This document shows positions 1-38,891 of a stretch of DNA of 40,582 nt, one piece after another (the stretch's first letter is position 1; the number at the start of each line of letters is the position of its first letter). The notes beneath the pieces are model-generated. The model was not told where the DNA came from and ran no database searches. It saw only the letters and a list, made by a program, of their open reading frames with translations. The position numbers were made by a program, and so were the translations under genes. The stretch is from a virus (Duplodnaviria > Heunggongvirae > Uroviricota > Caudoviricetes): positions 1 to 40,582 of IMG/VR virus record IMGVR_UViG_2778261692_000003, one strand, 5' to 3'.

Positions 1-1158
1 ATGCTCACCGTTAAGCAGATTGAAGCAGCAAAGCCGAAAGAAAAACCATACCGCCTTCTCGATGGTAATGGCCTGTACCTTTATGTCCCTGTATCCGGGA
101 AAAAGGTATGGCAGCTTCGCTACAAGATTGACGGTAAGGAAAAAATACTGACCGTAGGAAAATATCCGCTTATGACTTTGCAGGAGGCAAGGGATAAAGC
201 ATGGGCTGCGAGGAAAGACATCTCGGTTGGCATCGATCCGGTAAAAGCGAAAAAGGCTTCGTCTAACAACAACTCCTTTAGCGCCATTTACAAGGAATGG
301 TACGAGCACAAGAAGCAAGTCTGGTCAGTAGGCTATGCAAATGAACTTGCAAAAATGTTTGATGACGACATTTTACCCATCATCGGCGGCCTTGAAATTC
401 AGGATATTGAGCCGATGCAACTGTTGGAAGTAATCCGCAGATTTGAAGATCGCGGCGCAATGGAGCGAGCAAACAAAGCACGCAGAAGATGCGGCGAGGT
501 TTTCCGTTACGCTATTGTCACCGGAAGGGCTAAATATAACCCGGCACCTGACCTTGCAGACGCCATGAAAGGATACCGCAAGAAGAACTTCCCGTTTTTA
601 CCTGCAGACCAGATCCCGGCATTCAACAAAGCACTGGCAACATTTTCAGGAAGTATCGTATCGCTCATTGCCACCAAGGTTTTACGCTACACAGCCCTCA
701 GAACAAAAGAGCTTCGCTCCATGCAATGGAAGAACGTCGATTTTGAAAACAGGATTATCACTATCGACGCCAGTGTGATGAAGGGACGCAAAATTCATGT
801 GGTCCCGATGTCAGACCAGGTGGTTGAACTTCTCACTACGCTAAGCTCAATCACTAAACCAGTATCAGAGTTTGTTTTTGCCGGGCGCAACGATAAGAAG
901 AAGCCAATTTGCGAGAACGCTGTACTGCTTGTGATCAAACGAATCGGCTATGAGGGTCTGGAAAGCGGTCACGGATTCAGGCATGAATTCAGCACGATTA
1001 TGAACGAGCACGAATGGCCTGCTGACGCTATTGAAGTGCAACTGGCGCATGCCAACGGCGGATCTGTACGTGGAATTTACAACCATGCTCAGTATCTCGA
1101 TAAGCGCAGAGAAATGATGCAATGGTGGGCGGACTGGCTTGATGAAAAGGTGGAGTGA
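1..1158 (+). CDS. intS: P4-family tyrosine integrase (IntS of KplE1/CPS-53 type, argW-specific)
   Basis: 385-aa ORF. The N-terminus MLTVKQIEAAKPKEKPYRLLDGNGLYLYV and the C-terminal GHGFRHEF...HANGGSVRGIYNH catalytic region are typical of P4-like integrases. The sequence matches my recollection of E. coli IntS almost residue for residue. Confidence 0.95.
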   Translation: MLTVKQIEAAKPKEKPYRLLDGNGLYLYVPVSGKKVWQLRYKIDGKEKILTVGKYPLMTLQEARDKAWAARKDISVGIDPVKAKKASSNNNSFSAIYKEWYEHKKQVWSVGYANELAKMFDDDILPIIGGLEIQDIEPMQLLEVIRRFEDRGAMERANKARRRCGEVFRYAIVTGRAKYNPAPDLADAMKGYRKKNFPFLPADQIPAFNKALATFSGSIVSLIATKVLRYTALRTKELRSMQWKNVDFENRIITIDASVMKGRKIHVVPMSDQVVELLTTLSSITKPVSEFVFAGRNDKKKPICENAVLLVIKRIGYEGLESGHGFRHEFSTIMNEHEWPADAIEVQLAHANGGSVRGIYNHAQYLDKRREMMQWWADWLDEKVE

Positions 1159-1370
1159 TCCACATTAACTATCGAATGACACAAATCATTGCAATCCAGT
1201 GCAAAGCTTTGTGTGTTTTGTAGACATTGTCGTTGAAAGATGAGATGTATCAATTCAACAACTCAGTGAATTTTTCTTATGTTTCATATAGGAAAAATTT
1301 ATAATGGATTACTATGGATTTTATCGCATAATCATGTGAATGACATTTACAGAAAGTGATCGGTTTAATA

Positions 1371-2489
1371 ATGAACAATAAACTTAGCTCAGTACAGATA
1401 CTTAGAGGATTAGCTGCATTGTCTGTAGTTCTTTTTCACTACAGATTTTGGTTATCACCATTGTATGGAGATTTAACTATCCCTAATAAATATTTATCTT
1501 GGGGTTCTGCTGGTGTTGATTTGTTCTTCGTAATAAGTGGTTTTATTATGATGCATATCACTAGCCGTAAGCCATCTGGTATAAAGTCTGCTATATTCTT
1601 TTCCGTAGAAAGACTCACAAGGATTTTTCCTACATATTTTATTGCTCTCTTTACAGCTTTCTACTTTACATGGGAAGTTGGAATCTTCGTTGACCAAGCT
1701 AAGGTGGAAAATTTACTGAGTGCTTTAACATTCTCTCCTTTTACGGATGCGTACCCTCCTTTGTATGTTGATGCTGGTGGTATATTTGTTATTAGATGGA
1801 CGCTTAACTATGAATTATACTTCTATCTTGTATTCGCACTTTGTTTATTATTCAATAAAAGAACCTCTGGCATAGTCGTATGGATAATGACAACTATCCT
1901 TGTAGGATATATGTTGACTGGAAATGTAACATTATCCACTTCAGGTTATAAAACTGGTACTCCAGAACTTAGCTTTTTAACAAATCCGATAGTAATTGAA
2001 TTTGCTTTAGGCATCCTTGCTGGGCACACAGTTCGTTCAGCAAAATCATGGAGCAATAGATTAAAATACTCATTCACTGCTATATCGGCATTAATTTTTA
2101 TGACTGCAGTCTTCAATGGTTCTATTGAAGGTTATAATTTAAAGACAGGCATCATTGCATACTTCCTCTTAGTGGCGTTCGTAATAAATGATGAAGTTAT
2201 AACAAAAATTACACCATCATTTTTTGTAATGCTTGGTGATATTTCCTTCTCATGGTATCTGCTTCATAACCAGGTAGGTAGTTACATTTCATGGCAGGTT
2301 GAGGCTAATAATCCAGGTGTGATGCACAATGTATACGGGTTCACTATTTTACTAATTTTATCAATTTTTATTGCATTTCTTTCGCATAAATATATTGAAG
2401 TGATACTTACTAACAAGATTAGAAATAAGATATTTATGAGCATCCCTGGTAAACTGGTGGATATGAGGAAAGTAAAACAGGGGGAATAA
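1371..2489 (+). CDS. Acyltransferase family 3 integral membrane protein (O-antigen acetylase-like, serotype-conversion candidate)
   Basis: 372 aa from the ATG at 1371; the ORF-track start at 1356 is a GTG. Carries LRGLAALSVVLFHY and GVDLFFVISGF motifs and about 10 hydrophobic segments. Very low GC. Sits between int and tailspike, as oac does in Sf6. Confidence 0.8.
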   Translation: MNNKLSSVQILRGLAALSVVLFHYRFWLSPLYGDLTIPNKYLSWGSAGVDLFFVISGFIMMHITSRKPSGIKSAIFFSVERLTRIFPTYFIALFTAFYFTWEVGIFVDQAKVENLLSALTFSPFTDAYPPLYVDAGGIFVIRWTLNYELYFYLVFALCLLFNKRTSGIVVWIMTTILVGYMLTGNVTLSTSGYKTGTPELSFLTNPIVIEFALGILAGHTVRSAKSWSNRLKYSFTAISALIFMTAVFNGSIEGYNLKTGIIAYFLLVAFVINDEVITKITPSFFVMLGDISFSWYLLHNQVGSYISWQVEANNPGVMHNVYGFTILLILSIFIAFLSHKYIEVILTNKIRNKIFMSIPGKLVDMRKVKQGE

Positions 2490-2497
2490 TCCCCCCC
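2478..2497. terminator. Hairpin between convergent acyltransferase and tailspike genes (likely end of the late operon)
   Basis: GGGGGA-ATAA-TCCCCC stem-loop at 2480-2495. On the minus strand it is followed by TGTTTTAC. Confidence 0.5.
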
Positions 2498-2511
2498 CCA
2501 CAGCATAAATC

Positions 2512-4317
2512 TTAGTTCAGAATATCTGACTGACTCATAGATATAGCAGTCCAGTATCCGTAGTTTGCATCATAAGCAAATCTTATAGACCGGTGGCGCC
2601 CTGCTGCCGGGCTTGTCCATCCAGAAACTCTGAAGTCAGAAGACCAGTTTACTATTAATTCATCAGATCCAGAAATGTTATGAATAGTCATATCAATAGT
2701 CGCACCGTCTAATTTTTTTGCTACAGACGTAACATTAATTGGTGAACCAGTAGCCGACACAACACAGTATGATGATAAAAATGGGTTAATTTGCACAGTA
2801 CCATTTGATGAAATTATATTGTTGCTACGCGATGGATAAGGGTTAGTGCTTTCTTTTTTAGCTCCAGATGAAATATTGAAAATATTCTCATATGAATTTC
2901 TTAACCCGTTATCTACGATGATAGAATCGTTGCCTAAAAGATTCATACCTATTACTTTATTATCATGCGATGATGAGTCAAAATCTATACCACTGCTTAC
3001 TCCACCAATAAAGCTATTAGCATATGAGCCTTGCACCTGAATGGCTGGAGATGAATAACCAGCTTTTAGACCAATAAAGTCATTTGCATATGTTGTTTTA
3101 TGTAATAACACATCAGTTAAAGAATTAACTTCAAGATCCATGCCAATAACTGAATTCCCAACTGATTGGTTTCTATCATCAGTAGCGTGACCAAACTCAA
3201 TGCCAATATCGTTACCTTCTGATGTGCCATTTATAAATGTACAATTAGACATAAACACCCCACAAATCCCACTACCAGAGGTATGTTCAATAGTGGTATT
3301 CATGTAAGTATTTGCAGAAGACCCACGATCATTACCAGTTCCAAACTCACAATCAGATAAGATTCCGTGAACAGGGGTTGTTTGGAATGCTTCAATATTA
3401 TTACTGCATTGAATATTTTCATAGTGGCAAAGTTGGGTCCACCATTCATGAATAGCGGTCCTTGATATATTTGTCCCACGAATATTTTTGAATATACCTC
3501 CGATAACACCACGCAATGAAAGGCCATCTTTTGCGTGACCACCACCATCAAAGATAATGTTTTCAATATGTGACCCATAACCCCAGAACGAACCACTAGG
3601 CCCGCGAAGATCAATTTCCATAACATAGTCATGACTGCCACTAATGAGCTTAATGCGAGCGCCATCATCTCCATACCAAAATGCAGGACTAGTGAATGAC
3701 AACGGCTGAGATGTAAGGCAAACCCCTGCAGGTTGAACTATACGGACACCAGTATGCGCAGCAGCTACAGCAGCCTGAATTGCCACTGTGTCATCAGTTA
3801 CACCATCGCACTTAGCACCAAAATCTTTTAAGTTGATTATTTGTGCGTTTTTATCATGCTGTGTGATAGCTACCGACCCGGCAACGGGCTGTCTTACGCC
3901 AATTAATGCATCACCTTTTGAATCATCATTAATGTATTCCCCTGATTGAGATAACTGCTCTTTGAAGTCTGGACCAAACTGATCAGGGTCATACTTCAGC
4001 ACATTAGGAAAATAAAACTGCTGTGCACCATACGCATCATAAACAGCCATAGAATGGCCTTGCACGGTTACAAACTTGGCAATCTGTCCGTTATATACTG
4101 GGTAACCAGCAGCGTTAATGATGATTGGTTGAGAAACAGGAACGTGAGAGCCGTCTTCGTTCTCTACATAAACCTGAATCTGGTTTTCAGGATTTACCGG
4201 GTCAGTGTCAATTTTACCGATATAAATTTTGCCATTGGCTACGGCTTTAAAAGAACGAGCCATAGTGAAGAGTTGCGAAGGCATGCTGACCACAACATTT
4301 GCGGTGATATCTGACAT
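2512..4317 (-). CDS. Tailspike: P22 gp9-like head-binding N-domain plus divergent beta-helix receptor-binding/depolymerase domain
   Basis: Start moved to the ATG at 4317 ([17 protein letters not shown]...[27 protein letters not shown]), with GGAG upstream. This N-terminus matches P22 gp9. The downstream [20 protein letters not shown] is a pectate-lyase-like beta-helix start. GC drops after about aa 120. Confidence 0.9.
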
Positions 4318-4438
4318 TTCATTGCTCCAGACGAATGATATGATGCAACCATGATGTGATTGCATACCGAAATGGTACTATTGAGTATTTATCCAGTAGG
4401 TTACGATGCCATTCCACCCAACTGGTGAGGCATCAAGG

Positions 4439-4699
4439 ATGTACAGCAAATACGACGAGGCGCAGTTTCACTTGAGACTTCCGCATGAACTCCACGCGAA
4501 AATTAAGCAGCGTGCGAAGATGAATAACAGGTCGCTGAACTCAGAGATAATTGCAGCGATTGAGGAATCATTGGATAAACAAAGCTCTGCATCAGTTTAC
4601 ATTGACGATGCAGAGCGTATGGCAGAACAACAATCTGATATGGTTAAGAAAATTGTCTTTGATACGCTCAAGAAGCTATATAAAAAAGACAGCAGATAA
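4439..4699 (+). CDS. mnt: Mnt-like ribbon-helix-helix repressor (immI remnant)
   Basis: 86 aa from the ATG at 4439, with GGTGAGG upstream. The N-terminal FHLRLPHELHAKIKQRAKMNNRSLNSEII is an RHH fold. The C-terminus DDAERMAEQQSDMVKKIVFDTLKKLYKK closely parallels P22 Mnt. No arc or ant gene follows. Confidence 0.8.
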   Translation: MYSKYDEAQFHLRLPHELHAKIKQRAKMNNRSLNSEIIAAIEESLDKQSSASVYIDDAERMAEQQSDMVKKIVFDTLKKLYKKDSR

Positions 4700-4719
4700 C
4701 CATCCGTTACGGAGGATTT

Positions 4720-4797
4720 ATGCACAGAGATATGCTGAATATTGCGTTCTACATATTTGGTTTTTGCACGTTCCTGGTGTTTGCGAAGTTATTCTGA
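4720..4797 (+). CDS. Possible 25-aa hydrophobic micro-protein downstream of mnt
   Basis: ATG at 4720 preceded by ACGGAGGA. Translation is MHRDMLNIAFYIFGFCTFLVFAKLF, a single TM-like helix. It overlaps the 3' end of the convergent ejection-protein gene by 9 nt. Too short for statistical support. Confidence 0.25.
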   Translation: MHRDMLNIAFYIFGFCTFLVFAKLF

Positions 4798-7182
4798 CAG
4801 CGCATCAGACTTAGCCCCCTGAGTCAGGGCGTTAATGGCCTTTTGTGCCTGCTGCATGGCTTTCTCAAAGGCTGTTGATCCGCGTGGGGTGTTTGCCATT
4901 CGGAGCATTGCATTTCTGAATGGCTCGCTCTCATATGCGCGAGTAAGAAGTCCGTAGCTTACCGCTGCGCCAGTTGTCGCAGGGTTCATTGCTGTCCCAT
5001 ATCCGATAATGAACGGGATGGTTTGCTGCCCTGTTGGTGTTGTTACTGCCGCTTTTGCAGCCTGCTGCGTGGATTGCAGGTAGTTTTTCAATCCTTTCAG
5101 ATAAGCGGCTTCCTGACCTTTAAATGTGATGCCAGTCTGGTTTTGCAGGATGTTAAGCTGTCGAAGGAACTGGTCAGGGGAACCACCTGATTTCTCCATC
5201 GCCTTTCCAATGATGCCATTGCGCATTTGCGCCCTGCCAACACGACCAACTGAGTTATACAGCGTCTTAATTTCCGATTTGTTCTTGCTGAATAGCATGT
5301 TGTTGACAACTTCCGGCGTCAGGTCGCCTTTCATGAGAACATTCTTCAGCCTGGTATTCTTTAGTTTCGCCGCTTCGTCAGCGTAGACGGCATTGGCCTG
5401 CTGATATTTACGGAGAGTATCGTTGCCAAGATTCTGACCAATGGCACCATTGATATCGTCGGTCATTGCCTTGTAAACGCGCTGAATGGCAGCATCGGAA
5501 CGGTTTGGTAACACTGGTCGCTCCCCCTTCACGTCCATTCTGAACTGGCTGCGCAGATCGCTTAATTGCTTCAAATCCAGATTTACCGGACCATCAGGAC
5601 CAGCATTGCGAACAAGCTCATCACGATAGGACTGAAGTTTTGAAATAGTCTCGTTATCAGCAACCTTACCAAGCTTCTGCAGGTTAGATATTTCTGTATC
5701 AATCTGCTGAATTGCTCTTGCAGGCTGAATGTTTATTCCCGCCATAGCATTCTGAACCTGCTCAAGACGGTTCCCTGCAGCACGACGAATTCCTGATGTT
5801 TTCGCTTTAAGGCTGTCAATAACAACAGCTGGATCATACTCACCGAATTTATCAGCAAATCTCTGCACCAACTGGCTTCTCGCTTCCTGTTGCGTTGCTC
5901 TCATTCCGCTTGTGCCAGCCAGGGGGATATTTTCCGCTGTCGTCTGCGCCATTTTTCCGACGCGGGAAATGGGTTGTAACAGGTCTGTGGTGTGCAGAGG
6001 AACTCCTTCACGTTCTGCAAATCTGATAGCCTGTTGCGCTTCTGGTGCTATCGAACCACGAACACCACGATAAGCAGCACCTAATCCACGTCCGGCAGCG
6101 TTAATAGCACCGCCAGCCAGCACACCAACGCCTAAATCGGTGGCGAGTGCTTCCGCATCATCTTTCGCACTGTTTGCAGCAAGTGATCCAACTGCGTTTT
6201 CTGCGAGAAGGCGAGTTGCCACCTGAGCAATTCGACCAGCAAGTGTTGGTGCCTGTGCTGCCGCTCTCTCAACGCCAGCAGGAGTGAGGTAAGGCAATGC
6301 TTCAGCAAATACCCTTCCCTCTGTCGTTTGTGGAGTCAGCGCGCCTTGCTGAAGGCCAAAGTCCTGCTCTAATCCCTGCGTTGTTACTCGTGGTGCTGGT
6401 TGATATGTACCATCGCCAATGCCGAGTTTACCGCCAGCCCAAGCCGCCGCGCTTGTTACAGCATCAGTGAGTTCAGCAGGTATGTTCGCTACGTTGATTC
6501 CTGCCTGTAGTAAGCCGCGCCCGGTTTCAGCAAGTCCATTACCAAGGTCAGACATTATTCCGCCTTGCTGCTGAACAGGTTTCGGTGCGACAGAACTTAC
6601 GGGTTGAGGTGGCTGCTGACTGGCTGCCTGCTGCTCAATCTGAGCAAATGGATTATTTGGGTCTGACTGCACGCCTGATGCCGATACTTGTTCGGATGAC
6701 TGTGCTTCCAGTTGTGCAAACGGGTTGTTAGGGTCTTGCTGAGGATGTACCTTTGCAGAGGTGGCGCGCTGTTCGACTGTTGAGTCTGTCACCGGGTCAC
6801 CCGCCCATTGAGCAAAGCGATCATCAACGTAACCGCGGCCTTCAGGTCCTGGCGTATATTCACCACGCTTTGCCTTCATAACGTTGCCGGGACCGTCGTG
6901 ATAAGCCTGAAGAGCGTCACGCCAGTTACCAAACTGCTGGTACATCTTTGCCAGATAGCGCGCGCCAGCGTCAGCCTGATATTCGGGGTTTTGCATTTGC
7001 TCATCGGTATAACCCATATCACGCCATGTCCCAGGCATGACCTGAGTCAATCCTACAGCCCCGGCGGAGCTTACTGCGGCAGGGTTGTAAGAAGACTCCT
7101 TGGCACCCAGTGCAGTCATCAACCCTTCTGGCACACCGTAACGTGCGCCAGCCTGCTCTAACAAATCACGGTAATTAGCCAT
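4789..7182 (-). CDS. Ejection (DNA-transfer) protein, gp16 position, with N-terminal lytic transglycosylase (SLT) domain
   Basis: 797 aa. SLT motifs AKESSYNP (catalytic E-S), GLTQVMP and AYHDGPG lie in aa 25-100. The remainder is Gln/Ala-rich. It is the last gene of the three-gene ejection block. Confidence 0.85.
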   Translation of the reverse strand: MANYRDLLEQAGARYGVPEGLMTALGAKESSYNPAAVSSAGAVGLTQVMPGTWRDMGYTDEQMQNPEYQADAGARYLAKMYQQFGNWRDALQAYHDGPGNVMKAKRGEYTPGPEGRGYVDDRFAQWAGDPVTDSTVEQRATSAKVHPQQDPNNPFAQLEAQSSEQVSASGVQSDPNNPFAQIEQQAASQQPPQPVSSVAPKPVQQQGGIMSDLGNGLAETGRGLLQAGINVANIPAELTDAVTSAAAWAGGKLGIGDGTYQPAPRVTTQGLEQDFGLQQGALTPQTTEGRVFAEALPYLTPAGVERAAAQAPTLAGRIAQVATRLLAENAVGSLAANSAKDDAEALATDLGVGVLAGGAINAAGRGLGAAYRGVRGSIAPEAQQAIRFAEREGVPLHTTDLLQPISRVGKMAQTTAENIPLAGTSGMRATQQEARSQLVQRFADKFGEYDPAVVIDSLKAKTSGIRRAAGNRLEQVQNAMAGINIQPARAIQQIDTEISNLQKLGKVADNETISKLQSYRDELVRNAGPDGPVNLDLKQLSDLRSQFRMDVKGERPVLPNRSDAAIQRVYKAMTDDINGAIGQNLGNDTLRKYQQANAVYADEAAKLKNTRLKNVLMKGDLTPEVVNNMLFSKNKSEIKTLYNSVGRVGRAQMRNGIIGKAMEKSGGSPDQFLRQLNILQNQTGITFKGQEAAYLKGLKNYLQSTQQAAKAAVTTPTGQQTIPFIIGYGTAMNPATTGAAVSYGLLTRAYESEPFRNAMLRMANTPRGSTAFEKAMQQAQKAINALTQGAKSDALSE

Positions 7183-8520
7183 TTACTGCCCCAAAGATGG
7201 AAGATATCCGTAGCGATTAATGAAGTCGATTGACAGCTCGGGGTGTTGCTTCAGGTAATCTATAGAAGCCTGAGGCGCTTCCACTCGCTTGATACCGTTT
7301 TGCTGAACGTACTTACCAACCGCCTCATTACGCTTCTGGTTGAGCGTGTTCAGGATGACGCCAGCGTTGCGACGAAAGGACTCCTCGCTCTGCGAGTTCT
7401 GCAGCGAACCAACAGCCTGGTCGAGCTTTTTTCCCTCGGCATCAGAAAGTGCGCCCATGCCTCGCATGGCCTGAACCGCTGTCAGGTATGCTTGGGATTT
7501 AAAGGTATCAAGTCGTGCCTGAGTGTCTGCAGCCTGTGAGCCTGGAACGTTGGGGATTACTCCACGTAAGCCTGTAATGCTCTTAAGTGAAGGAGAACTA
7601 ACGATATCGTTCAGAGTGAACATGCTGGTTGTGAGGGTGTTGATGCCGTCTTTGTAGCCATCATTTAGCGCTTGCTGCTTCTGCTGCAACTGCTGGTTGT
7701 TGGCTGCTATGCGGCTCTGTATTTCCTGGCGCTTCAGGTCGTTAGTTTCTGCTGATAGCATCCGGTCAAGGCGCTTATTTTCGTTGTTAATGCGGTTTGT
7801 TTCTGCGTCCAGATTAATGCGCTGCTGACCTAAATTCGCCTGGATATCTTGCCCGCGCATTGTGATTGCCTGATTCCGAGCGGCGGTTTGCGAATCCAGA
7901 TCCTGACCGCGCATGGTAACCTGGCGACCCTGCATTTTATCCTGTAGGTCAAAGTATTTTTCGGGTCCGAGACTGTTCATCCCCAGGTGATCGACAAATT
8001 CGCCGAACTGCCGCGGGTTCTGTTGGTACATCTGAGCGACGTCCTGAGGATTAACGCCAACACGAGCTAACTCACCGGCGTTGTTTTGCAGCCATGATTG
8101 CATTGCTTCTGGAGACGATGACGCAAGGCGTGCGCCAGCCGCTAAGGTGCCAATAGAATTGCGCTGGTCTTCGTCTGCCCACTTCATACCAGACTGAATC
8201 TTCTCTAATTGACCAGGATATTTGGTCATCAGATCTCGAACCTGCTGCCGATCACCTGACTGGATGGCTGCCGCATATTCTTTTTGGAATGCAGCATCCG
8301 CTTCCTGTTGCTTTGCGGCTTGATATGTTTGAGCGACACTACCCAGTCCCTGCAACGCCTGAAGGCCGATGTTATTGCGACCTGAACGCTCCATTTCGTT
8401 GTTCTGGCGAATATAGGCCAACGCCTCACTTACATCACTTGCCTTTGGCGCATTTGAGTTTTGCCCACCGATACCAGCAAGAAAACCGCCTGAGTTGATT
8501 CCTTGTTGCCAAGTAGCCAT
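7183..8520 (-). CDS. Ejection (DNA-transfer) protein, gp20 position
   Basis: 445 aa, Gln-rich and coiled-coil-like. Its stop abuts the start of the next gene. AAGGTGGG lies upstream of the ATG. Synteny matches P22 7-20-16. Confidence 0.8.
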   Translation of the reverse strand: MATWQQGINSGGFLAGIGGQNSNAPKASDVSEALAYIRQNNEMERSGRNNIGLQALQGLGSVAQTYQAAKQQEADAAFQKEYAAAIQSGDRQQVRDLMTKYPGQLEKIQSGMKWADEDQRNSIGTLAAGARLASSSPEAMQSWLQNNAGELARVGVNPQDVAQMYQQNPRQFGEFVDHLGMNSLGPEKYFDLQDKMQGRQVTMRGQDLDSQTAARNQAITMRGQDIQANLGQQRINLDAETNRINNENKRLDRMLSAETNDLKRQEIQSRIAANNQQLQQKQQALNDGYKDGINTLTTSMFTLNDIVSSPSLKSITGLRGVIPNVPGSQAADTQARLDTFKSQAYLTAVQAMRGMGALSDAEGKKLDQAVGSLQNSQSEESFRRNAGVILNTLNQKRNEAVGKYVQQNGIKRVEAPQASIDYLKQHPELSIDFINRYGYLPSLGQ

Positions 8521-8529
8521 ATTCCCACC

Positions 8530-9204
8530 TTAAAATAATGATCCAAGACCACCGATAATGCCGCCACCAATAGCGCCAACAGCCGTACCTATTCCTGGCA
8601 CCACAGAGCCAATCATCGCCCCTGATGCCGCACCGCTCATGGCACCTCCCAAGGCTGATTGCAGTCCTGATGGTCGGTTAGCATTAGCCGCAGATGCTGC
8701 CGCCTGCTGTTGATACAATTGGCTGACGTTGTTAGCGTAGTTCTGTCCGGCATTTGCCTGACCTGTAAGAGCACCAAGGCCGATATTTGCCAGATTGTTG
8801 TAGTTGTTCATCTGACCTGACAGCCAGTTTTGACCGAGTGTAGGTGCGATTGCTGCCAACTGGTTTCCTGTTGCTGTAGAGCCTAATCCACCAGTTGCCT
8901 CTGCTGCTGCCAGACTCTGGTAACGCGCCTGTCCAGCAAGGTCTTTGTACTGCTGGGAGTTGTAATACTGGTTAAGCGCCTGACCTTGCCCCTGAAGAGA
9001 GGAAAGATTCTGCAACTGTGATACGTACTGCTGAGCAAGTGGCGTGAACGGTGCAAGGTTTTGCATGTTCGTTTGCCACATTTCGCGCTGCAATTCGATG
9101 CCCTTTTCAGTTGCGCGTGCCTGGGCCTTTGAACCGCCATCACTGCCACCTTTGCAGTAAACAGTTTTGCTGAGGTGCTTATTGGCAATCTGGAAAATTA
9201 ACAT
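8530..9204 (-). CDS. Ejection protein, gp7 position, with C-terminal glycine-zipper
   Basis: 224 aa with GAGGAG 7 nt upstream of the ATG at 9204. The C-terminus GGAMSGAASGAMIGSVVPGIGTAVGAIGGGIIGGLGSLF is a glycine-zipper membrane segment. Confidence 0.75.
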   Translation of the reverse strand: MLIFQIANKHLSKTVYCKGGSDGGSKAQARATEKGIELQREMWQTNMQNLAPFTPLAQQYVSQLQNLSSLQGQGQALNQYYNSQQYKDLAGQARYQSLAAAEATGGLGSTATGNQLAAIAPTLGQNWLSGQMNNYNNLANIGLGALTGQANAGQNYANNVSQLYQQQAAASAANANRPSGLQSALGGAMSGAASGAMIGSVVPGIGTAVGAIGGGIIGGLGSLF

Positions 9205-9658
9205 TCGTTAACTCCTCGTATTTTGAGCGCGGTAACTGATAAATCGTGATGCCTACAGGCTTTCCACTGCTGGTATAAGCATCATCAAGGTGACCAACAC
9301 GGGTAGCGCCAAGCAAACGGATAATTGCCCGTCCGTATTTCGTGGTGTCAGGAACCATGGTGATGCTGTTAAGGAATGGTGAGTTTTCGAGAAGCCATTT
9401 GCAGAATAATCGATGCCCTTGCAGTGCATATTCTCCACGGAATCCTGGGTCATACACCGCATGGCATTCAACAACGCTATGCCAGAAGTTACGCACTTCA
9501 TGCACTCCGACTAGCATCAGTCCTTCGTAGATGCCGAGGTATACCGCATCAGGCTTGATGTAGTATTTGTCTCCACTATCTACGATATTTCCCGTATTTG
9601 CTGGGTTGTTGAGGAATTCTGCAAGCTTCACCGGATTATCGATGAGCTTTATTTCCAT
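9179..9658 (-). CDS. gp14-position protein (P22 gene 14-like, head/ejection accessory)
   Basis: 159 aa from the ATG at 9658, which overlaps the needle stop (TGATG). Assigned by position between the needle and ejection genes. Function not recognisable from the sequence alone. Confidence 0.65.
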   Translation of the reverse strand: MEIKLIDNPVKLAEFLNNPANTGNIVDSGDKYYIKPDAVYLGIYEGLMLVGVHEVRNFWHSVVECHAVYDPGFRGEYALQGHRLFCKWLLENSPFLNSITMVPDTTKYGRAIIRLLGATRVGHLDDAYTSSGKPVGITIYQLPRSKYEELTNVNFPDCQ

Positions 9659-10506
9659 CACTGCTCCGCAATGATTTTGATGGTTGTGGCAGTAAACGCC
9701 GCACCATTCGACTGAATGGTTAACGTGCTGCCATTTGTGGCAAGAAAGCCGTCTTTATCCACACTGAAGAACGTAGCTAACATGATGTTATCGGTCGTTG
9801 TCGCCGCATTACGACTGCTTACCAGCGTGTCAGGGACAGAGCCGGAAAAGGTTAGCTGCATTGACCTGTTGGCGGTTCCGCTGGGCCACGTGCCGACAAT
9901 CGACAACTTGAAGAACAAGGTTTTGTTCTCGTTGAACACAACCATCTTGTTGTTAACGGTGTCGAAGAATGGTGCCAACGAGCCGGATGACGGCGTGAGC
10001 GTTTTCAGCAGGCTAACAAGGTTGGTCGGCGCTGTCGGGATGGTTACAGATACACCAGAGTAAACAACCTCTGACTTCTTGCGTGTGGTTGCATACTCCA
10101 GAGCATCAATGCGCGTTTCATGGTCTGAAACCTGCGACTCCAGCGACTGAACTCTGGTATCAAGCGACGCAATATCGCTTTCATTCTGAGTGATTCGTGT
10201 TTCATGTTCCTGAAGAGTTGATTCTGCCTGGCTGATTCGCTCCTCATGATTAACAAGCGTTGCTTCCGCAGCAGAAATTCGCTGCTCATGGTCAGCGAGA
10301 ATCACATCCTGCTCATCGTTCCTGACTTGTGCATCATAAGCGCCCTGTCCGGCCTCGTTGGCCTTGTTAGCCACGTTACCAACATCAGTACCCTGTGCGA
10401 TAACGTAAAGCAGATACGACTGCGAGAAGATATTGCGTGGAAGGACTGATGTGTCGAGCCGTGTAGCCTGAATGATTACCGGCACATTGAGATTCGAATC
10501 AGCCAT
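9658..10506 (-). CDS. Tail needle (P22 gp26 family) with C-terminal knob domain (Sf6/HK620 type)
   Basis: The N-terminus [62 protein letters not shown] is near-identical to P22 gp26. Heptad repeats (HE.RI...E) follow, then a roughly 130-aa non-coiled C-terminus. Confidence 0.9.
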
Positions 10507-11924: not shown

Positions 11925-11933
11925 TTATTCACC

Positions 11934-12564: not shown

Positions 12565-12575
12565 TGTCTTCTCCC

Positions 12576-12599: not shown

Positions 12600-12605
12600 C
12601 CAAAA

Positions 12606-25969: not shown

Positions 25970-25971
25970 TG

Positions 25972-26747: not shown

Positions 26748-27156
26748 AATTCCTCCATTCGCTAAGATGAATTGAGTTCATGGCACAATATGCTTCTATG
26801 TAGTCCATTATTTCGGATATTTTTTTTACAGATAGAGTCGCCGTACTCTCTCTGATGTTTATTAGCTCACCTTCTAACCCTGATATAATCTCAGGGTGCT
26901 GGTTGGTTGCAATCTGCCAACCAGAAACGAATAACCCCTTCCAAAACTCAATATTTCTTGCTTTTCCATGATATGTAGCCTTCTTACTTATTTCAGATAG
27001 CATCGCGTGAAGGCGTGCATTTTGCCGAATGCTGCGGTTGCGCTCCTGAATGATCACTACGATTGGCTTGGTTGGGTCTGGAAGGATTTGCTGTACTGCG
27101 TGAATAGCGTTTTGCTGATGTGCCGGAGATCGAATTTCAAAGGTTAGTTTTTTCAT
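26740..27156 (-). CDS. ninB: NinB (Orf-family recombination mediator), chimeric allele
   Basis: 138 aa from the ATG at 27156, with GAGGGAAG upstream. The first ~43 aa are lambda-identical (MKKLTFEIRSPAHQQNAIHAVQQILPDPTKPIVV.IQERNRS). The rest is a divergent, low-GC NinB-like sequence. Confidence 0.85.
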   Translation of the reverse strand: MKKLTFEIRSPAHQQNAIHAVQQILPDPTKPIVVIIQERNRSIRQNARLHAMLSEISKKATYHGKARNIEFWKGLFVSGWQIATNQHPEIISGLEGELINIRESTATLSVKKISEIMDYIEAYCAMNSIHLSEWRNYD

Positions 27157-27172
27157 GACTTCCCTCTCCCCC

Positions 27173-27204
27173 AAATAAAAAGGCCTGCGATTACCAGCAG
27201 GCCT
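27173..27204 (-). terminator. tR2-type intrinsic terminator upstream of the nin region
   Basis: Minus strand reads AGGCCTGCTGGTAATCGCAGGCCT followed by TTTTATTT, the same as the lambda tR2 hairpin as I recall it. Confidence 0.85.
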
Positions 27205-28669: not shown

Positions 28670-29549
28670 CGTGTTCACCCTCACGAACTTTCAGGTAGGT
28701 ATTGTCGTTAAGCAGGAAATCAAATCCCTTTTTGTGCCAGACGGTTCCGCGTTGATGGTTTGGACGCTCTTCGAACATCCATCGGCAATTTTCGCCTACG
28801 TAGCTCAAATAATTTCTCCAGTCCTGCATCGTGAACCCATGCCCGTCAAGCTGGCGGGTTATCACTCCGGCTTTGCGCCAGAACGTTCGGATCTGGTTTT
28901 TACGCTTGTCATTCAGTGCGCGGATTTTTGGCGCTTCAGGAAGGATTTCGTGGTAAGCATCGACAACATCCTGACAGCTAACGGAAGGTTTTTTCTTGTC
29001 AGACTTTTTGTCTGCTGCGGTACTCTCTAATACGTCAGTATTAGAGATATTATTTATATTATTGTTTATGGACAACCGTTGGACAACCGTTGGACAATCT
29101 CCGCTGAGAGCCGCGCCATTACTGGTGTTTGCGTTGGACAACCGTTGGACAACCGTTGGACAATTTTTTGACTGAAAATCGTCATATTTAACGATTGTAA
29201 ACAGGCTAAATTTCTTCCCCATCGAGCAAATATTAAGCATCCCTTTCGACTCAAAAGTCCGCAATAAGCTCCGAACTTTGTTGTCGGGGATGAATGTTTC
29301 TCTGACCAGCGACGGGCGTCCAGTTATCATCTGACCGCGATCAACAGTTATCGGCCCGATATCCGTATTGACGACAGTAGATTCGTGATTAGCCTTGAGG
29401 ATTAAGTGAAGCCAAAGATGTACTGCCTGAGAGTCCTTATAGAGCCTGCTGTCCATAAACTGGCGGTGTATAGAGACATACCCCATACTGGATGCCTCCT
29501 GATGTTGTACAGGGTTATGCCTGTAATCAGCTAACTTAACGACGCCCAT
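28659..29549 (-). CDS. Replication initiation protein (O-like) containing the origin iterons
   Basis: 296 aa with AGGAG 6 nt upstream. CPTVVQRLS occurs twice in the protein and is the translation of the iteron clusters. Lies directly upstream of, and overlaps, the helicase gene. Confidence 0.8.
   Translation of the reverse strand: MGVVKLADYRHNPVQHQEASSMGYVSIHRQFMDSRLYKDSQAVHLWLHLILKANHESTVVNTDIGPITVDRGQMITGRPSLVRETFIPDNKVRSLLRTFESKGMLNICSMGKKFSLFTIVKYDDFQSKNCPTVVQRLSNANTSNGAALSGDCPTVVQRLSINNNINNISNTDVLESTAADKKSDKKKPSVSCQDVVDAYHEILPEAPKIRALNDKRKNQIRTFWRKAGVITRQLDGHGFTMQDWRNYLSYVGENCRWMFEERPNHQRGTVWHKKGFDFLLNDNTYLKVREGEHDDR
29025..29167. repeat. Replication origin: two clusters of three 11-bp iterons plus an AT-rich tract and a 9-bp inverted repeat
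   Basis: GGACAACCGTT units start at 29069, 29080, 29091 and at 29135, 29146, 29157. The clusters are 66 bp (6 x 11) apart. An AT-rich tract lies at 29041-29068. The inverted repeat CTCTAATAC-GTCA-GTATTAGAG lies at 29025-29046. Confidence 0.8.
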
Positions 29550-29697
29550 GTTTCACTCCTGCTTTGGCTAGTCTGTAAACACCAACAAGGCGCTCTGCGA
29601 ACGCCCTGTTATTTGCTGCGGCTACCACTAATCCCTCAGGTGAATCAGGGTGTCGAATCTCTTCTTTTTCCTGGTATTTCTTACGACGTTTTGTCAT
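29536..29697 (-). CDS. Small basic hypothetical protein (53 aa) at the position of the lambda O start
   Basis: Translated by hand: MTKRRKKYQEKEEIRHPDSPEGLVVAAANNRAFAERLVGVYRLAKAGVKHGRR. AGGAGTAATT precedes the ATG, the same context as the lambda O start. Overlaps the initiator start by 14 nt. Confidence 0.4.
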   Translation of the reverse strand: MTKRRKKYQEKEEIRHPDSPEGLVVAAANNRAFAERLVGVYRLAKAGVKHGRR

Positions 29698-29707: not shown

Positions 29708-29786
29708 GTGGATTGATCCAGTAATGACCTCAGAATTCCATCTGGATTTGTTCAGAACGCTCGGTTGCCGCCGGGCGTTTTTTATT
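29708..29786 (+). ncRNA. oop: oop antisense RNA (anti-cII)
   Basis: GATTGATCCAGTAATGACCTCAGAA.TCCATCTGGATTTGTTCAGAACGCTCGGTTGCCGCCGGGCGTTTTTTATT is near-identical to lambda oop. The -10 CATAAT lies at 29695-29700. The terminator is CGCTCGG/CCGGGCG plus a T-run. It overlaps the cII 3' end. Confidence 0.8.
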
Positions 29787-30023
29787 GGTGAGAATCGAAG
29801 CAACTTGTCGTGCCAATCGAGCCATATCGTCGTCAACGACGCCCCATTCAAGAACAGCAAGCAGCATTGAGAACTTTGGAATCCAATCCCTCTTCCACCT
29901 GCTGATCTGCGACTTATCAACTCCCACAGCTTCCGCTGTCTTCTCAGTTCCAAGCATTGCGATTTTGTTAAGCAACGCACTCTCGATTCTTAGAGCCTCG
30001 TTGCGTTTGTTTGCACGAACCAT
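29730..30023 (-). CDS. cII: Transcriptional activator cII (lambda)
   Basis: 97 aa from the ATG at 30023: MVRANKRNEALRIESALLNKIAMLGTEKTAEAVGVDKSQISRWKRDWIPKF... This is essentially identical to lambda CII. Confidence 0.97.
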   Translation of the reverse strand: MVRANKRNEALRIESALLNKIAMLGTEKTAEAVGVDKSQISRWKRDWIPKFSMLLAVLEWGVVDDDMARLARQVASILTNKKRPAATERSEQIQMEF

Positions 30024-30033
30024 ATGTAAGTAT
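30001..30033 (+). promoter_or_regulatory. PRE (cII-activated establishment promoter)
   Basis: TTGCGTTTGTTTGC (TTGC-N6-TTGC), then 13 nt, then AAGTAT, inside the cII 5' end as in lambda. Confidence 0.8.
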
Positions 30034-30132: not shown

Positions 30133-30357
30133 TTATGCTGCCTGATTCGGTTTTGGAAACAGGTGTGGCAAATCGGGGCGAATTTCGTAAGCCTTGATCT
30201 GCCCTCCAGTGGCGTTAACGATGGCGGTAACTTTCTCTGGAGAGACCAATCCGCCTTTCAGCCATTTGTGTACTGCTGGCTGCGTTACACCACACTTGTC
30301 GGCAAGGCGCTTTTGGCTACCGACAATTTTCAAGGCTCGTTGAATTACTAAATTCAT
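30133..30357 (-). CDS. cro: Cro-type repressor (HTH, YdaS/Cro-like)
   Basis: 74 aa from the ATG at 30357, with AGAGG 7 nt upstream. The HTH reads SQKRLADKCGVTQPAVHKWL. It is the first gene of the rightward operon, divergent from cI. Confidence 0.8.
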   Translation of the reverse strand: MNLVIQRALKIVGSQKRLADKCGVTQPAVHKWLKGGLVSPEKVTAIVNATGGQIKAYEIRPDLPHLFPKPNQAA

Positions 30358-30383
30358 GAGCATACCTCTTGTGGTCATTGATT

Positions 30384-30456
30384 ATAACCAAAGATAACTC
30401 AAGTTATAAAAAATAGCAATAACCTTTGTTATTTTACTTTGGATAACCGTAGTTAT
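30384..30456. promoter_or_regulatory. OR operator region with PR and PRM
   Basis: Three ATAAC-N4-GTTAT inverted repeats lie at 30394-30407, 30419-30432 and 30443-30456, with centres 24-25 bp apart. There is also a half-site at 30384-30388. The PR -10 TATAAT is on the minus strand at 30382-30387. A possible PRM -10 TATAGA lies at 30454-30459, which would give a leaderless cI mRNA. Confidence 0.75.
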
Positions 30457-30468
30457 AGATTTGTGGGT

Positions 30469-31176
30469 ATGAAAACATTCGCAGAAAGACTAAATGCAGC
30501 CATGAGCTCAGCTGGGGTATCACAATCACAGCTTGCTGACATGGTTGGAATATCTCAGCCAGCCATACAGAAGATGTCGTCCGGTAAAACAAACGGATCT
30601 CGCAAGATGGTTGAATTAGCCAATGCTTTAAAAGTGCGCCCTGAATGGCTTAGTTCTGGTATTGGTGAAATGAGGGATGGTGCACATGAAGAACCATCCA
30701 ATGTCCGTGAGTCATCTTTAAAAGCTGTGGTATGGGAAGACATTAAAAGAAACGATGACGAGTTTGTTGCGTTGCCTCTTCTTAACGTTTCGCTTTCAGC
30801 TGGAAGCGGTAGCTGCGAGCTAGAGGAATCATCGGAGTTCTCTTTGGTTTTCAGAAAGCACTATCTGAAAAAGATGGGAGTATCTGAAAGATCAGCCAAG
30901 CTAGTTAGGGTTGTAGGGCAAAGCATGGAACCAACGCTTCACGATGGCGATGTTGTTGGTGTTAACACGCAAGATACCACAATCAGAGATGGTAAAACCT
31001 ACGCTATTTGCCAGTCTGATTTGTTACGAGTAAAAACATTAATCGCCACCCCTACATCGGTGATAATCAGATCAATAAATCGCGAAGAGTACCCGGATGA
31101 AGTAATGGATAGAGATGAATTTCATGAAACCGTAAGGATTATTGGCAGAGTATTCTGGTCGTCTCATAGTTGGTAA
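30469..31176 (+). CDS. cI: CI-type prophage repressor (HTH_XRE + S24 LexA-like autopeptidase)
   Basis: 235 aa from the ATG at 30469. The HTH reads SQSQLADMVGISQPAIQKM. An Ala-Gly cleavage site lies in SLSAGSG. The catalytic Ser is in GQSMEPT and the catalytic Lys in LRVKTL. Confidence 0.9.
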   Translation: MKTFAERLNAAMSSAGVSQSQLADMVGISQPAIQKMSSGKTNGSRKMVELANALKVRPEWLSSGIGEMRDGAHEEPSNVRESSLKAVVWEDIKRNDDEFVALPLLNVSLSAGSGSCELEESSEFSLVFRKHYLKKMGVSERSAKLVRVVGQSMEPTLHDGDVVGVNTQDTTIRDGKTYAICQSDLLRVKTLIATPTSVIIRSINREEYPDEVMDRDEFHETVRIIGRVFWSSHSW

Positions 31177-31947: not shown

Positions 31948-32220
31948 ATGACAGTAGTCATTACATATCTGGCTGACGATAACGCCAGAAATCGCCGCAG
32001 AGCACGCAGACAGGCTCAACGTGAACAGGCAATGCAAGAACAGCGATTGGCGCGAAAAATTGCGCTAAAGCTCTCTGGTTGCGTCAGAGCAGACAAAGCA
32101 GCATCACTAGGAAGCCTTTGCTGCAAGAAGGCAGATGAATGCAGTGGAAGTATTTGCCTGCCAAACGTAGCCGTTTACGCGGCAGGCTACCGGAAATCAA
32201 AACAATTGACGGCGAGGTAA
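31948..32220 (+). CDS. N-type antiterminator (P22 gp24 family)
   Basis: 90 aa. An arginine-rich motif NARNRRRARRQAQREQ lies near the N-terminus. The C-terminus LPNVAVYAAGYRKSKQLTAR parallels the P22 gp24 C-terminus. GGAGG lies upstream. Confidence 0.85.
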   Translation: MTVVITYLADDNARNRRRARRQAQREQAMQEQRLARKIALKLSGCVRADKAASLGSLCCKKADECSGSICLPNVAVYAAGYRKSKQLTAR

Positions 32221-32765: not shown

Positions 32766-33188
32766 ATGGAAGAACAAGCAAACAAGATTCTCGTAGAACT
32801 ACTGCAAAAAGCCAGCAATGGAATAGACGCGGCTGTTTCATTTAGCCAGGCACAGATTCCTGATGTTGTTCATCAGTTGCTAATATGGAGTTTTGTCCAT
32901 AGCGCACTTTCCCAAGTGACTGGGTTGTTGCTTTTAATTGCAGCAATAAAACTTCCTAGTTTTGCAAGAACGGCAAGAAATAATGGCGAGAGATGGACGT
33001 CTTTCGATGGATGTCCAAATGATGGATATTTTATATCTTCGTTTTATTACGATATATGCACCGTATTTGCTCCTGTATTTGGCTCAATTATTGGCGTTTC
33101 AATTATCGCCTTCAATTTCGAATGGTTGAAGATTTGGCTTGCACCTAAGTTATTCCTAATTGAATATGCAGCATCATTGGTTAAGTAA
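32766..33188 (+). CDS. Hypothetical inner-membrane protein (140 aa, 2-3 TM segments)
   Basis: TTATTTGAGGTGATAT precedes the ATG. Hydrophobic segments are LLIWSFVHSALSQVTGLLLLIAAI and ICTVFAPVFGSIIGVSIIAF. A terminator follows. Confidence 0.65.
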   Translation: MEEQANKILVELLQKASNGIDAAVSFSQAQIPDVVHQLLIWSFVHSALSQVTGLLLLIAAIKLPSFARTARNNGERWTSFDGCPNDGYFISSFYYDICTVFAPVFGSIIGVSIIAFNFEWLKIWLAPKLFLIEYAASLVK

Positions 33189-38025: not shown

Positions 38026-38055
38026 CCTGCAACTTGCCGTAAAAGGTGAATAACA

Positions 38056-38084
38056 ATCCTCGCACTCTCGGGGATTTCTTTTAT
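38056..38084 (+). terminator. Intrinsic terminator (first of a tandem pair)
   Basis: ATCCTCG-CACTCT-CGGGGAT followed by TTCTTTT. Confidence 0.65.
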
Positions 38085-38087
38085 ATG

Positions 38088-38112
38088 AACTCGCTACGGC
38101 GAGTTTTGTTTT
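38088..38112 (+). terminator. Intrinsic terminator (second of a tandem pair)
   Basis: AACTCGC-TACG-GCGAGTT followed by TTGTTTT. Confidence 0.7.
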
Positions 38113-38125
38113 ATGGAGACAAGAA

Positions 38126-38470
38126 ATGTCAGATTTGGCTATGAAGGTTTTGAAATGGCAATCAACTGGCGATGTCGGCATCAGTAGCGCAACTCTTGCC
38201 TCAATCGCATGTGGCCTGAAAAAGAATATCTATGGTCATGGCTTCGGTGCTCCACATGACGCAGCCGATTTCAGACGATGCGTTGCACTTGTTGAGCAGA
38301 TTCCAGAAATCAGAGATTCATTCGACAAGGTTGCAAAGCGCGTTCCGGCATTCAAAGGAATCCTCAACGAATGGGATTCCCTCGTTGCTCTGTTGAAGTC
38401 TGAAATGAAGATACACGGAAACAAAGCACCAAAAACTTACAGAAGAATCAGCGAGCTACGCAAGGACTAA
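38126..38470 (+). CDS. Hypothetical protein (114 aa) insulated by terminators on both sides
   Basis: GGAGA lies upstream of the ATG. Two terminators precede it and two hairpins follow it. No recognisable motif. Confidence 0.65.
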   Translation: MSDLAMKVLKWQSTGDVGISSATLASIACGLKKNIYGHGFGAPHDAADFRRCVALVEQIPEIRDSFDKVAKRVPAFKGILNEWDSLVALLKSEMKIHGNKAPKTYRRISELRKD

Positions 38471-38538
38471 CCATGAAATAACACAGCCTCACACTCGATG
38501 AGGCCTGTTCATTTCTCAAGATATCCAGACCTATCATC

Positions 38539-38562
38539 GCCGCATCAATGCGGCTTTTTATT
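38539..38562 (+). terminator. Intrinsic terminator upstream of torI
   Basis: GCCGCA-TCAA-TGCGGC followed by TTTTTATT. A weaker hairpin lies at 38486-38504. Confidence 0.8.
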
Positions 38563-38569
38563 GCCTGAT

Positions 38570-38585
38570 TTGCAGGTTCGATTCC
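38570..38585 (+). repeat. 16-bp fragment identical to the argW tRNA T-stem/T-loop
   Basis: TTGCAGGTTCGATTCC equals the argW segment immediately 5' of the attR core sequence, from my recollection of argW. No acceptor or anticodon arm is adjacent, so it is not a tRNA gene. Confidence 0.6.
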
Positions 38586-38604
38586 CTATTCGGAGATAGC
38601 ACTC

Positions 38605-38805
38605 ATGCAACACGAACTACAACCTGATTCACTGGTTGATTTGAAATTCATCATGGCTGATACTGGCTTCGGTAAGACCTTCATCTATGACCGGATTAAG
38701 TCCGGAGACCTGCCTAAAGCCAAAGTTATCCACGGACGAGCAAGATGGTTATATCGTGACCATTGTGAATTCAAAAATAAGCTCTTAAGCCGCGCTAATG
38801 GGTAA
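38605..38805 (+). CDS. torI: Excisionase / recombination directionality factor TorI (AlpA/Xis family)
   Basis: 66 aa: MQHELQPDSLVDLKFIMADTGFGKTFIYDRIKSGDLPKAKVIHGRARWLYRDHCEFKNKLLSRANG. This matches my recollection of E. coli TorI. GGAG lies 9 nt upstream. Confidence 0.93.
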   Translation: MQHELQPDSLVDLKFIMADTGFGKTFIYDRIKSGDLPKAKVIHGRARWLYRDHCEFKNKLLSRANG

Positions 38806-38876
38806 AATAGCGGGTAAAATATTTCTCACATCTAAAAAATATCATTCCAATCAATCCCCTGCCGCGCCAAGTAGAT

Positions 38877-38891
38877 GTCTGCAGGGGACAC
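38877..38891 (+). other. attR core (copy of the argW 3' end)
   Basis: CTGCAGGGGACACCA is the 3' T-stem strand plus acceptor strand plus CCA of argW. It lies 71 bp after torI. A tandem GGGTAAAATA x2 at 38800-38821 lies in the arm and may be a protein-binding site. Confidence 0.8.

Follow-up and report, generated by a model that had tools for sequence, protein, structure and literature searches.

The window analysed here, a stretch of 40,582 nucleotides (nt) from the IMG/VR virus record IMGVR_UViG_2778261692_000003, contains a P22-like Lederbergvirus prophage of the CUS-3/HK620/Sf6 group integrated in the argW tRNA gene, and our subject is the relation between its lambda-type cII activator and its genes for integrase (intS) and excisionase (torI). 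Megablast searches of phage records group the entire region with the Lederbergvirus (P22-like) podoviruses of E. coli and Shigella, as a mosaic of pieces at 94-97% identity to Kapi1, CUS-3, IME10, Sf6, HK620 and others; finer comparison was made gene by gene, using tblastn against lambda, P22, Sf6, HK620, Kapi1, E. coli K-12 KplE1 and CUS-3. The tyrosine integrase gene intS (1-1158, + strand; Pfam domains Arm-DNA-bind_3, Phage_int_M and Phage_integrase) occupies the left, attL-proximal prophage end with its promoter outside the window, and its product is 99% identical in amino acid sequence to K-12 KplE1 IntS, HK620 Int, Sf6 gp16 and the CUS-3 integrase. The recombination directionality factor (RDF, or excisionase) gene torI (38605-38805, +; matching PDB 1z4h and PHROG 66, excisionase) lies at the right end, terminating 73 nt ahead of the att core, and all 66 amino acids of TorI are identical to those of K-12 TorI, HK620 HkaC and Sf6 gp18. 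It is followed by attR (38800-38893, +), comprising two GGGTAAAATA repeats (38800-38821) and the core CTGCAGGGGACACCA (38879-38893), which is identical to the argW 3' end, is duplicated at both prophage ends and marks the right boundary of the prophage; host DNA (cscB) is present from 39335. The initial annotation was thus correct in placing the IntS and TorI genes at opposite prophage ends. The same placement, int at attL and torI at attR, is seen in K-12 KplE1, the CUS-3 arrangement is alike, and in the HK620 record torI (hkaC), the attP core and int follow in that order on one strand, so that integration puts int at attL and torI at attR.

The sequence preceding intS was obtained through an exact-protein look-up of IntS, which led to a Logan contig (L131) that has zero mismatches to window positions 1-4158 and extends upstream through argW, yfdC and mlaA. 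On this contig the attL core lies within argW, the intS ATG is 176 nt from the start of the core, and between the two is a sigma-70 promoter, PintS (TTGACA-N18-TAAAAA), with a consensus -35 element; the region differs from the mapped K-12 attL by 3 mismatches in 193 nt. The order argW, PintS, intS, with int read in the direction leading away from the tRNA, bears out the earlier suggestion that the int promoter resides in the attL region beyond the window. That suggestion had been accompanied by the remark that a cII box upstream of intS would make the regulatory question moot, and none was found on either strand of the upstream 176 nt of the contig when TTGC-N5-7-TTGC was sought with up to one mismatch. 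Similarly, no canonical PI, the cII promoter that drives int without xis, could be identified, since a TTGC-N6-TTGC box occurs neither ahead of torI nor within attR nor in the P' arm. In the absence of a canonical cII target promoter for int, the gene must be controlled in some other way, and the proposal that the lysogeny decision is wired to integrase expression differently than in lambda stands, intS having a sigma-70 promoter of its own and no cII box upstream.

The KplE1 recombination module, including an intS gene equipped with its own promoter, was reportedly described in JBC in 2007. In KplE1 the start site of the sigma-70 PintS promoter has been mapped by primer extension, the integrase promoter overlaps attL, and it is repressed by both IntS and TorI (Panis et al. 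2010, PMC2951348); the same study describes int as uncoupled from the RDF in a sub-family consisting of KplE1, HK620, Sf6 and CUS-3, and proposes that excision is controlled via RDF expression alone. A 2012 follow-up to that work likewise gives TorI as 100% identical to HK620 HkaC and Sf6 gp18. The different wiring is therefore not an open puzzle, having already been described by Panis et al. (2007, 2010). Repression of intS by IntS and TorI is assumed, on the strength of sequence identity, to extend to the present prophage, the experimental basis being from KplE1 only. Phages P2, 186 and P4 are cited as further cases of uncoupled int and RDF transcription, P4 int being repressed by Int and Vis.

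At the other end of the prophage, the 550 nt before torI contain four terminator-like hairpins (38055-38559, +), the strongest of which, GCCGCATCAATGCGGC at 38539-38554, is followed by a U-run at 38555-38559. Terminator-like hairpins number 9 over 3.4 kb here, against 3.4 +/- 2.0 expected; folding of the cluster gave z -3.1, and a hairpin occurs at the same place upstream of torI in HK620, Sf6, Kapi1 and CUS-3. We detected no sigma-70-like promoter between these hairpins and the torI ATG, and torI, lacking a recognisable promoter and standing behind four hairpins, would consequently be expressed only via N-antiterminated transcription from PL. The N antiterminator gene (31948-32220, +) is of the HK620/phage-21 (21/H19B) type; its product is 96% identical to HK620 N and just 35% identical to P22 gp24, so that its earlier designation as P22-type has to be given up. 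The early-left genes extend on the + strand up to 38805, torI being the last, and PHROG scans of unnamed early genes matched only families without a known function. Between torI and int the HK620 sequence contains nothing terminator-like. Two alternative sequences are found upstream of torI, one in the window and K-12 and the other in HK620, Sf6, Kapi1 and CUS-3, each ending in a hairpin at the same position.

Immediately beyond these hairpins is a 16-nt copy of the argW T-arm, TTGCAGGTTCGATTCC (38570-38585, +), which in the tRNA is directly contiguous with the att core. A gathering-threshold Rfam scan of the whole window and ARAGORN both returned nothing, identifying the argW-like 16-mer as a fragment and not a tRNA gene. 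The torI cassette (293 nt, 38586-38878) sits exactly between TTGCAGGTTCGATTCC and (C)TGCAGGGGACACCA, two segments that are contiguous in argW, and does so equally in HK620, Sf6, Kapi1 and K-12, which suggests that the ancestral attP had a longer block of tRNA identity, into which the RDF gene was then inserted. In the CUS-3 record the TTGCAGGTTCGATTCC repeat is labelled 'attL/attR core'; because that GenBank record takes this segment as the att core, it stops at the tRNA fragment and does not include torI.

The lambda cII circuitry is retained elsewhere in the prophage. The cII gene (29730-30023, -) encodes a protein with 96 of 97 amino acids identical to lambda cII (matching PDB 1xwr), the sole change, A76S, being outside the N-terminal part. 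Homology to lambda begins approximately 19 nt before the cII ATG, at about the position of PRE +1, extends through the oop terminator and oop -10, and ends a few bases into the next gene. The oop antisense RNA region (29708-29784, +) aligns with lambda 38599-38675, and the matching sequence is annotated as oop in the HK633 record; its body, terminator and -10 are kept, and its -35 lies in non-lambda sequence. PRE (30001-30033, +), directed through cro to cI, consists of the box TTGCGTTTGTTTGC at 30001-30014, 13 nt and AAGTAT, and PaQ (23672-23704, +), antisense within Q, of the box TTGCGAGCACTTGC at 23672-23685, 13 nt and TAGTAT; both boxes equal those of lambda save for one spacer base, the PaQ counterpart being at lambda 44186-44173. 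The claim that lambda cII, oop, PRE and PaQ are present with a common promoter geometry therefore holds, with the qualification that the oop -35 differs. Equally justified was the description of the cI/cro pair as foreign: cro (30133-30378, -; Pfam YdaS/P22_Cro) and cI (30439-31176, +; Pfam HTH_3 and Peptidase_S24) are both non-lambda, and cI, 98-99% identical to the repressors of a few Shiga toxin 1 (Stx1) phages, has no close match in lambda, P22, Sf6, HK620 or CUS-3. In Kapi1 (L008), the cII gene at 30344-30640 combines an unrelated N-terminal part with the exact lambda cII C-terminus LTNKKRPAATERSEQIQMEF; this C-terminus is the part that overlaps oop, placing a mosaic joint inside cII.

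For comparison we assembled the cII and C1 promoters lambda PRE, PI and PaQ, P22 PRE, Pa23 and PaI, and CUS-3 and Sf6 PaQ, every one of which has an N6 spacer, a 13-nt distance and a hexamer whose second and sixth bases are A and T, respectively. The window contains eight TTGC-N6-TTGC boxes, where 3.5 +/- 1.9 would be expected by chance, and the lambda -10 geometry is found in PRE and PaQ alone. We do not accept as cII sites the boxes at 10079, 14328, 20236, 32928 (+) and 37448 (-), since all lie inside coding sequences and none has an acceptable -10 at 13 nt, the hexamers at that distance being TCAATG, CCACTT, TGCCCC, CCTAGT and AGCCCA, respectively. One of these boxes, TTGCTTTTAATTGC at 32928-32941 (+), is on the PL-sense strand within a homologue of Sf6 gp34 (gene 93-94% identical) and occurs also in CUS-3 and Sf6; its conservation is probably that of the coding sequence, and its hexamer CCTAGT lacks the A at position 2. 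No antisense promoter resembling P22 PaI was found upstream of torI, nor any PaI-like box with a usable -10 in the window.

Taken together, we consider it probable that the element is an argW prophage with the published KplE1-type recombination module, to which cII is coupled only indirectly. Gene order, sequence identities, the anatomy of promoters and boxes and the lack of a cII box are direct observations on this prophage. In the mechanism that we propose, the circular phage would carry PL, torI, attP and intS in this order on one strand, to be split at attP on integration; transcription of intS would start at a sigma-70 promoter that belongs to this gene and lies in the P' arm (attL), with IntS and TorI both keeping the promoter at low activity. 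The consensus -35 of PintS implies that no activator is needed, in which respect it differs from the activator-dependent cII promoters. As cII retains its targets PRE (establishment of cI) and PaQ (anti-Q) and has no int promoter, the lysogeny decision would reach the recombination module indirectly: cII would activate PRE, and also PaQ, CI would accumulate and shut off PL, and TorI would no longer be made; without TorI, excision would cease to be favoured and PintS would be freed from repression by that protein, after which IntS would integrate the genome.

Several considerations weigh against this indirect coupling. PintS lies outside the window and is known here from the identical contig L131. 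The double-negative coupling during infection would be an extension of excision-side data, obtained with the cryptic prophage KplE1, and we found in the literature no infection or lysogeny-establishment experiment, such as one timing the supply of Int, for this group of common serotype-converting phages of E. coli and Shigella. The annotators of HK620 and Sf6 have, moreover, proposed a putative cII-dependent PI upstream of torI. Finally, read-through from PL across attP would make IntS early in infection, in which case PintS may not be its sole source.

The last of these points leads to the best-surviving alternative, which we regard as possible but doubtful, namely that Int is supplied mainly by N-antiterminated PL read-through across attP, available in the circular form only, and that PL and PintS transcripts are told apart by a hairpin following intS, in the role of retroregulator or terminator. 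It overlaps with the indirect coupling preferred above, and the two are not mutually exclusive. In its favour, torI, attP and intS are co-linear in HK620 and have no terminator between them. Directly 3' of intS there is indeed a hairpin with a U-rich tail (1179-1222, +; RNA fold -16.5 kcal/mol, z -2.7), which is probably the int terminator. Both K-12 and HK620 have it behind intS, the HK620 record annotating a terminator there, and CUS-3 has a shortened form; it is missing in Sf6, Kapi1 and the QML220601 prophage, and is hence not a fixed part of the module, which counts against this alternative. The K-12 copy is identical at approximately 36 of 38 nt to lambda 27470-27507, just past tI in the int-distal b region, and the window hairpin (1179-1214), more diverged from lambda in its 5' arm, retains this resemblance to sequence just beyond tI/sib. 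However, the tI hairpin itself is lacking, in that no counterpart of the lambda tI stem (~27540-27578) exists in the window and just the neighbouring hairpin 27470-27507 is shared, and we could not confirm that lambda 27470-27507 forms part of sib. A further difficulty is that PL read-through transcripts would also yield TorI, which represses PintS and drives excision.

The hairpin also contains, antisense to int, a TTGC-N6-TTGC at 1191-1204 (-), with the same box at lambda 27484-27497. As a cII-driven anti-int promoter this box was rejected, being loop and stem of a hairpin common to lambda. We know of no report of the lambda 27484 TTGC-N6-TTGC as a cII site.

A broader reading, to which we give little credence, would combine these elements: no direct cII input to integrase anywhere in the group, a topology that lets PL reach intS only when the genome is circular, a lambda-derived hairpin that sorts read-through from terminated int transcripts, and, separately, torI inserted into the attP tRNA block. 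Were this so, the sib logic of lambda would be inverted, with integration removing the promoter instead of the retroregulator.

Less probable again, and in our view very unlikely, is a cII-activated PI from which, once the phage is circular, transcription would cross torI and attP and reach intS. The initial annotation reported no TTGC-N6-TTGC upstream of torI, and this is accurate for the exact N6 form, which is absent from the + strand between 32941 and torI; overlooked was a TTGC-N5-TTGC, TTGCCTGATTTGC (38561-38573, +), 32 nt before the torI ATG. The HK620 record places a 'cII protein' site on the same 13-mer, inside what it labels a 'phage integration' promoter, and that of Sf6 has at this spot 'pI; possible integrase expression promoter'. 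The N5 motif is shared by HK620, Sf6, Kapi1, CUS-3 and the window, it stands directly after the terminator hairpin, as might a promoter that bypasses termination, and a perfect match to both repeats less than 60 nt from torI on the right strand is unlikely by chance, N5 boxes in the window numbering four. Nevertheless, the candidate departs from all of the compared cII and C1 promoters on both counts, with its N5 spacer and its hexamer TATTCG (CTATTC or ATTCGG with a one-base register shift), and its second repeat is simply the start of the tRNA-derived 16-mer. The first repeat reads TTGC in 88, TTAC in 30 and TTTC in one of 119 IMG/VR contigs with adjoining sequence, TTAC being found in 12 of the 41 contigs that show a cII gene, whatever its type, and in 5 of the 11 that extend upstream for 9.5 kb or more without showing one. 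Its minor-allele frequency of 0.29 falls at the level of torI synonymous sites (0.24-0.40; 75 contigs with sufficient flank), such that, on this sequence variation, the first repeat behaves as a neutral site regardless of cII. A transcript from such a promoter would, in addition, encode TorI before IntS and so favour excision, the opposite of lambda PI. The TTGC-N5-TTGC at 38561-38573 is thus probably non-functional as a cII site, and the annotation of a cII-activated 'PI' in the GenBank records of HK620 and Sf6 probably wrong.

That the prophage is defective and its wiring a relic, a finding that would also have made the regulatory question moot, is most improbable: K-12 KplE1 is a remnant with the same int/torI ends, and this exact prophage occurs in no complete E. 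coli genome of the collection, where its left 4.4 kb were covered to 69% at best, but there is no sign of a defect, the size of ~39.05 kb between att cores (counting the 176 nt upstream of the window) being as in Sf6 (39.0 kb), HK620 (38.3 kb), Kapi1 (39.4 kb) and CUS-3 (40.2 kb), the virion, replication, lysis and regulatory open reading frames (ORFs) all being full length and sharing 95-100% identity with phages that have been isolated and form plaques, and the sole insert, with no insertion sequence (IS) element or transposase in the prophage, being an HNH homing endonuclease gene between nin genes. To judge from this gene content, the prophage is apparently intact and functional.

As regards the KplE1-type module, the finding re-derives from sequence an architecture published in 2007-2010 for KplE1, HK620, Sf6 and CUS-3, in which the integrase promoter is inside attL and int is uncoupled from the RDF, and as such matters little. 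Its mild novelty is limited to two points, the evidence that the 'PI' of HK620 and Sf6 is not a conserved cII site and the observation that the torI cassette lies between two contiguous argW-derived segments.

Amongst known systems, CUS-3 (CP000711, from E. coli K1 RS218, sequenced in 2007) shares the argW site, IntS (99%), the cII region (99%) with the same PRE box, the portal, scaffold, coat, gp4, gp10, terL and terS genes (95-100%), S and R (99-100%), and at its right end the same terminator, TTGC-N5-TTGC and tRNA-fragment sequence; unlike the window, it has a phage-21-type Q, another cI/cro pair, another helicase and O, an endosialidase tailspike and an ant/mnt region. KplE1 (CPS-53) has intS at attL with PintS overlapping attL, torI at attR, the same 15-16 nt argW core, TorI at 100%, IntS at 99% and the near-identical attL already described, but it is reduced to a 10-kb remnant that lacks cI, cII, N and the virion genes; its N5 box copy has TTAC, and the hairpin preceding that box is degenerate. 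HK620 and Sf6 possess the same int/attP/torI module, HK620 being further alike in N, helicase (99%) and a lambda-type Q, S and R, and Sf6 in its O-like initiator (98%), helicase (99%) and gp16/gp26; both differ in having a cII of the P22-C1 type (the window's cII-region ORF is 55-63% identical), other immunity regions, other head genes (29-56% identity) and another tailspike specificity. With lambda the prophage has in common cII and an essentially identical PRE, PaQ and oop body; unlike lambda, it has no PI, its int is across attP from the xis/torI position and would be served by a constitutive, autoregulated promoter, and the tI hairpin is lacking. In P22, int and xis are adjacent on the same side of attP, unlike here, and no int promoter activated by C1 is annotated in the P22 record, just the antisense PaI upstream of xis.

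The module list of the initial annotation mostly holds, needing correction as to the N type, the head-gene type and the extent of lambda sequence in nin and the lysis genes, but the combination is not unusual as had been claimed. Lambda-type cII occurs at 95-99% nucleotide identity in 129 phage records, including the P22-like podoviruses CUS-3, Gally, JEP4, HF4s, Louie, vB_EcoP-720R6 and vB_EcoP-683R2, and of these CUS-3, HF4s, 683R2 and Louie also match the window intS, thereby joining IntS to a lambda-type cII; lambda-type Q, S and R genes in a P22-like phage are found likewise in HK620 and in P22 itself. The combination is therefore ordinary, and both the arrangement and its regulatory consequence have already been published for this phage group.

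Virion genes of P22-like type fill 2512-18914 (-). The block at 4789-18914 (-) encodes gp16, gp20, gp7, gp14, gp26, gp10, gp4, coat, scaffold, portal, terL and terS, all full length, and together with the tailspike and its head-binding domain follows the P22 gene order terS-terL-portal-scaffold-coat-gp4-gp10-gp26-gp14-gp7-gp20-gp16-tailspike. The portal, scaffold, coat, gp4 and terS products are 95-100% identical to those of CUS-3/Kapi1, with portal, scaffold, coat and gp4 merely 29-56% identical to Sf6 and P22, whereas gp26, gp10 and terL are 97-99% identical to Sf6/HK620 (gp10 and terL 99%) and gp16 is 97% identical to Sf6 over 590 of its 797 amino acids. The proposed 'Sf6/P22 morphogenesis' is accordingly right as to the P22-like virion genes, the head genes being of CUS-3/Kapi1 and not of Sf6 type. 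A Rha-family gene is located at 20180-20941 (-).

The lysis cassette S, R, Rz/Rz1 (21041-22288, -) includes S and R at 99% and 98% identity to lambda and an Rz that is 62% identical to lambda and 98% to Kapi1. The late promoter/terminator region pR'-qut-6S-tR' (23076-23310, -) is near-identical in alignment to lambda 44550-44790, and the Q antiterminator (23349-23972, -) is of lambda type, with 99% amino acid identity to lambda Q. The nin region (23969-27174, -) combines lambda, P22 and Sf6 segments in a mosaic, with the endonuclease insert in addition. The attribution of Q, pR', SRRz and nin to lambda is thus true only of Q, pR', ninG, ninI, S, R and the first half of Rz. The inserted homing endonuclease gene (26145-26747, -; NUMOD4 and HNH_3 domains, G+C content 0.40) has no counterpart in lambda, P22, Sf6, HK620, Kapi1 or CUS-3. 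The replication module (27233-29697, -), comprising a 53-amino-acid ORF, an O-like initiator and a DnaB-type helicase at 98-100% identity to Sf6 genes 42-44, is of the Sf6/HK620/HK022 type and not lambda O/P, to which tblastn gave no match. Downstream of tR', 22635-23068 (-) is additional to lambda; it contains a 251-nt unit bounded by a 16-nt direct repeat, AACAGGTAAGAGCATT, at 23053-23068 and 22802-22817, after which comes a G+C-rich stretch of approximately 170 nt that has no lambda match, and Rfam and tRNA scans of 22635-23068 returned nothing.

Next to intS is an acyltransferase gene (1356-2489, +; GTG start, G+C content 0.36) with an Acyl_transf_3 domain (Pfam PF01757, E 6e-23), whose product is 26% identical to Sf6 Oac and is likely to modify O-antigen, that is, to be a lysogenic conversion factor; an exact-protein look-up of it gave no record. 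It is followed by the tailspike gene (2512-4365, -; Pfam Head_binding and Pect-lyase), in which a P22-type head-binding N-terminus, 96% identical to HK620, is joined to a divergent receptor-binding domain, and for which an exact-protein look-up yielded just one 4.6-kb contig. The two genes (1356-4365) make up a serotype-conversion and host-range cassette in low-G+C DNA. The contig L131, derived from the Sequence Read Archive (SRA), carries the same cassette up to position 4158, where the tailspike gene runs off the contig end. The prophage of E. coli QML220601 (from yak) lacks the acyltransferase and has a tailspike that is 99% identical over the full protein. Adjacent to the cassette, 4406-4699 (+) is a gene for an Mnt/Arc-family repressor, 49% identical to P22 mnt, with no adjoining ant or arc, and standing alone it apparently represents a reduced immI region.

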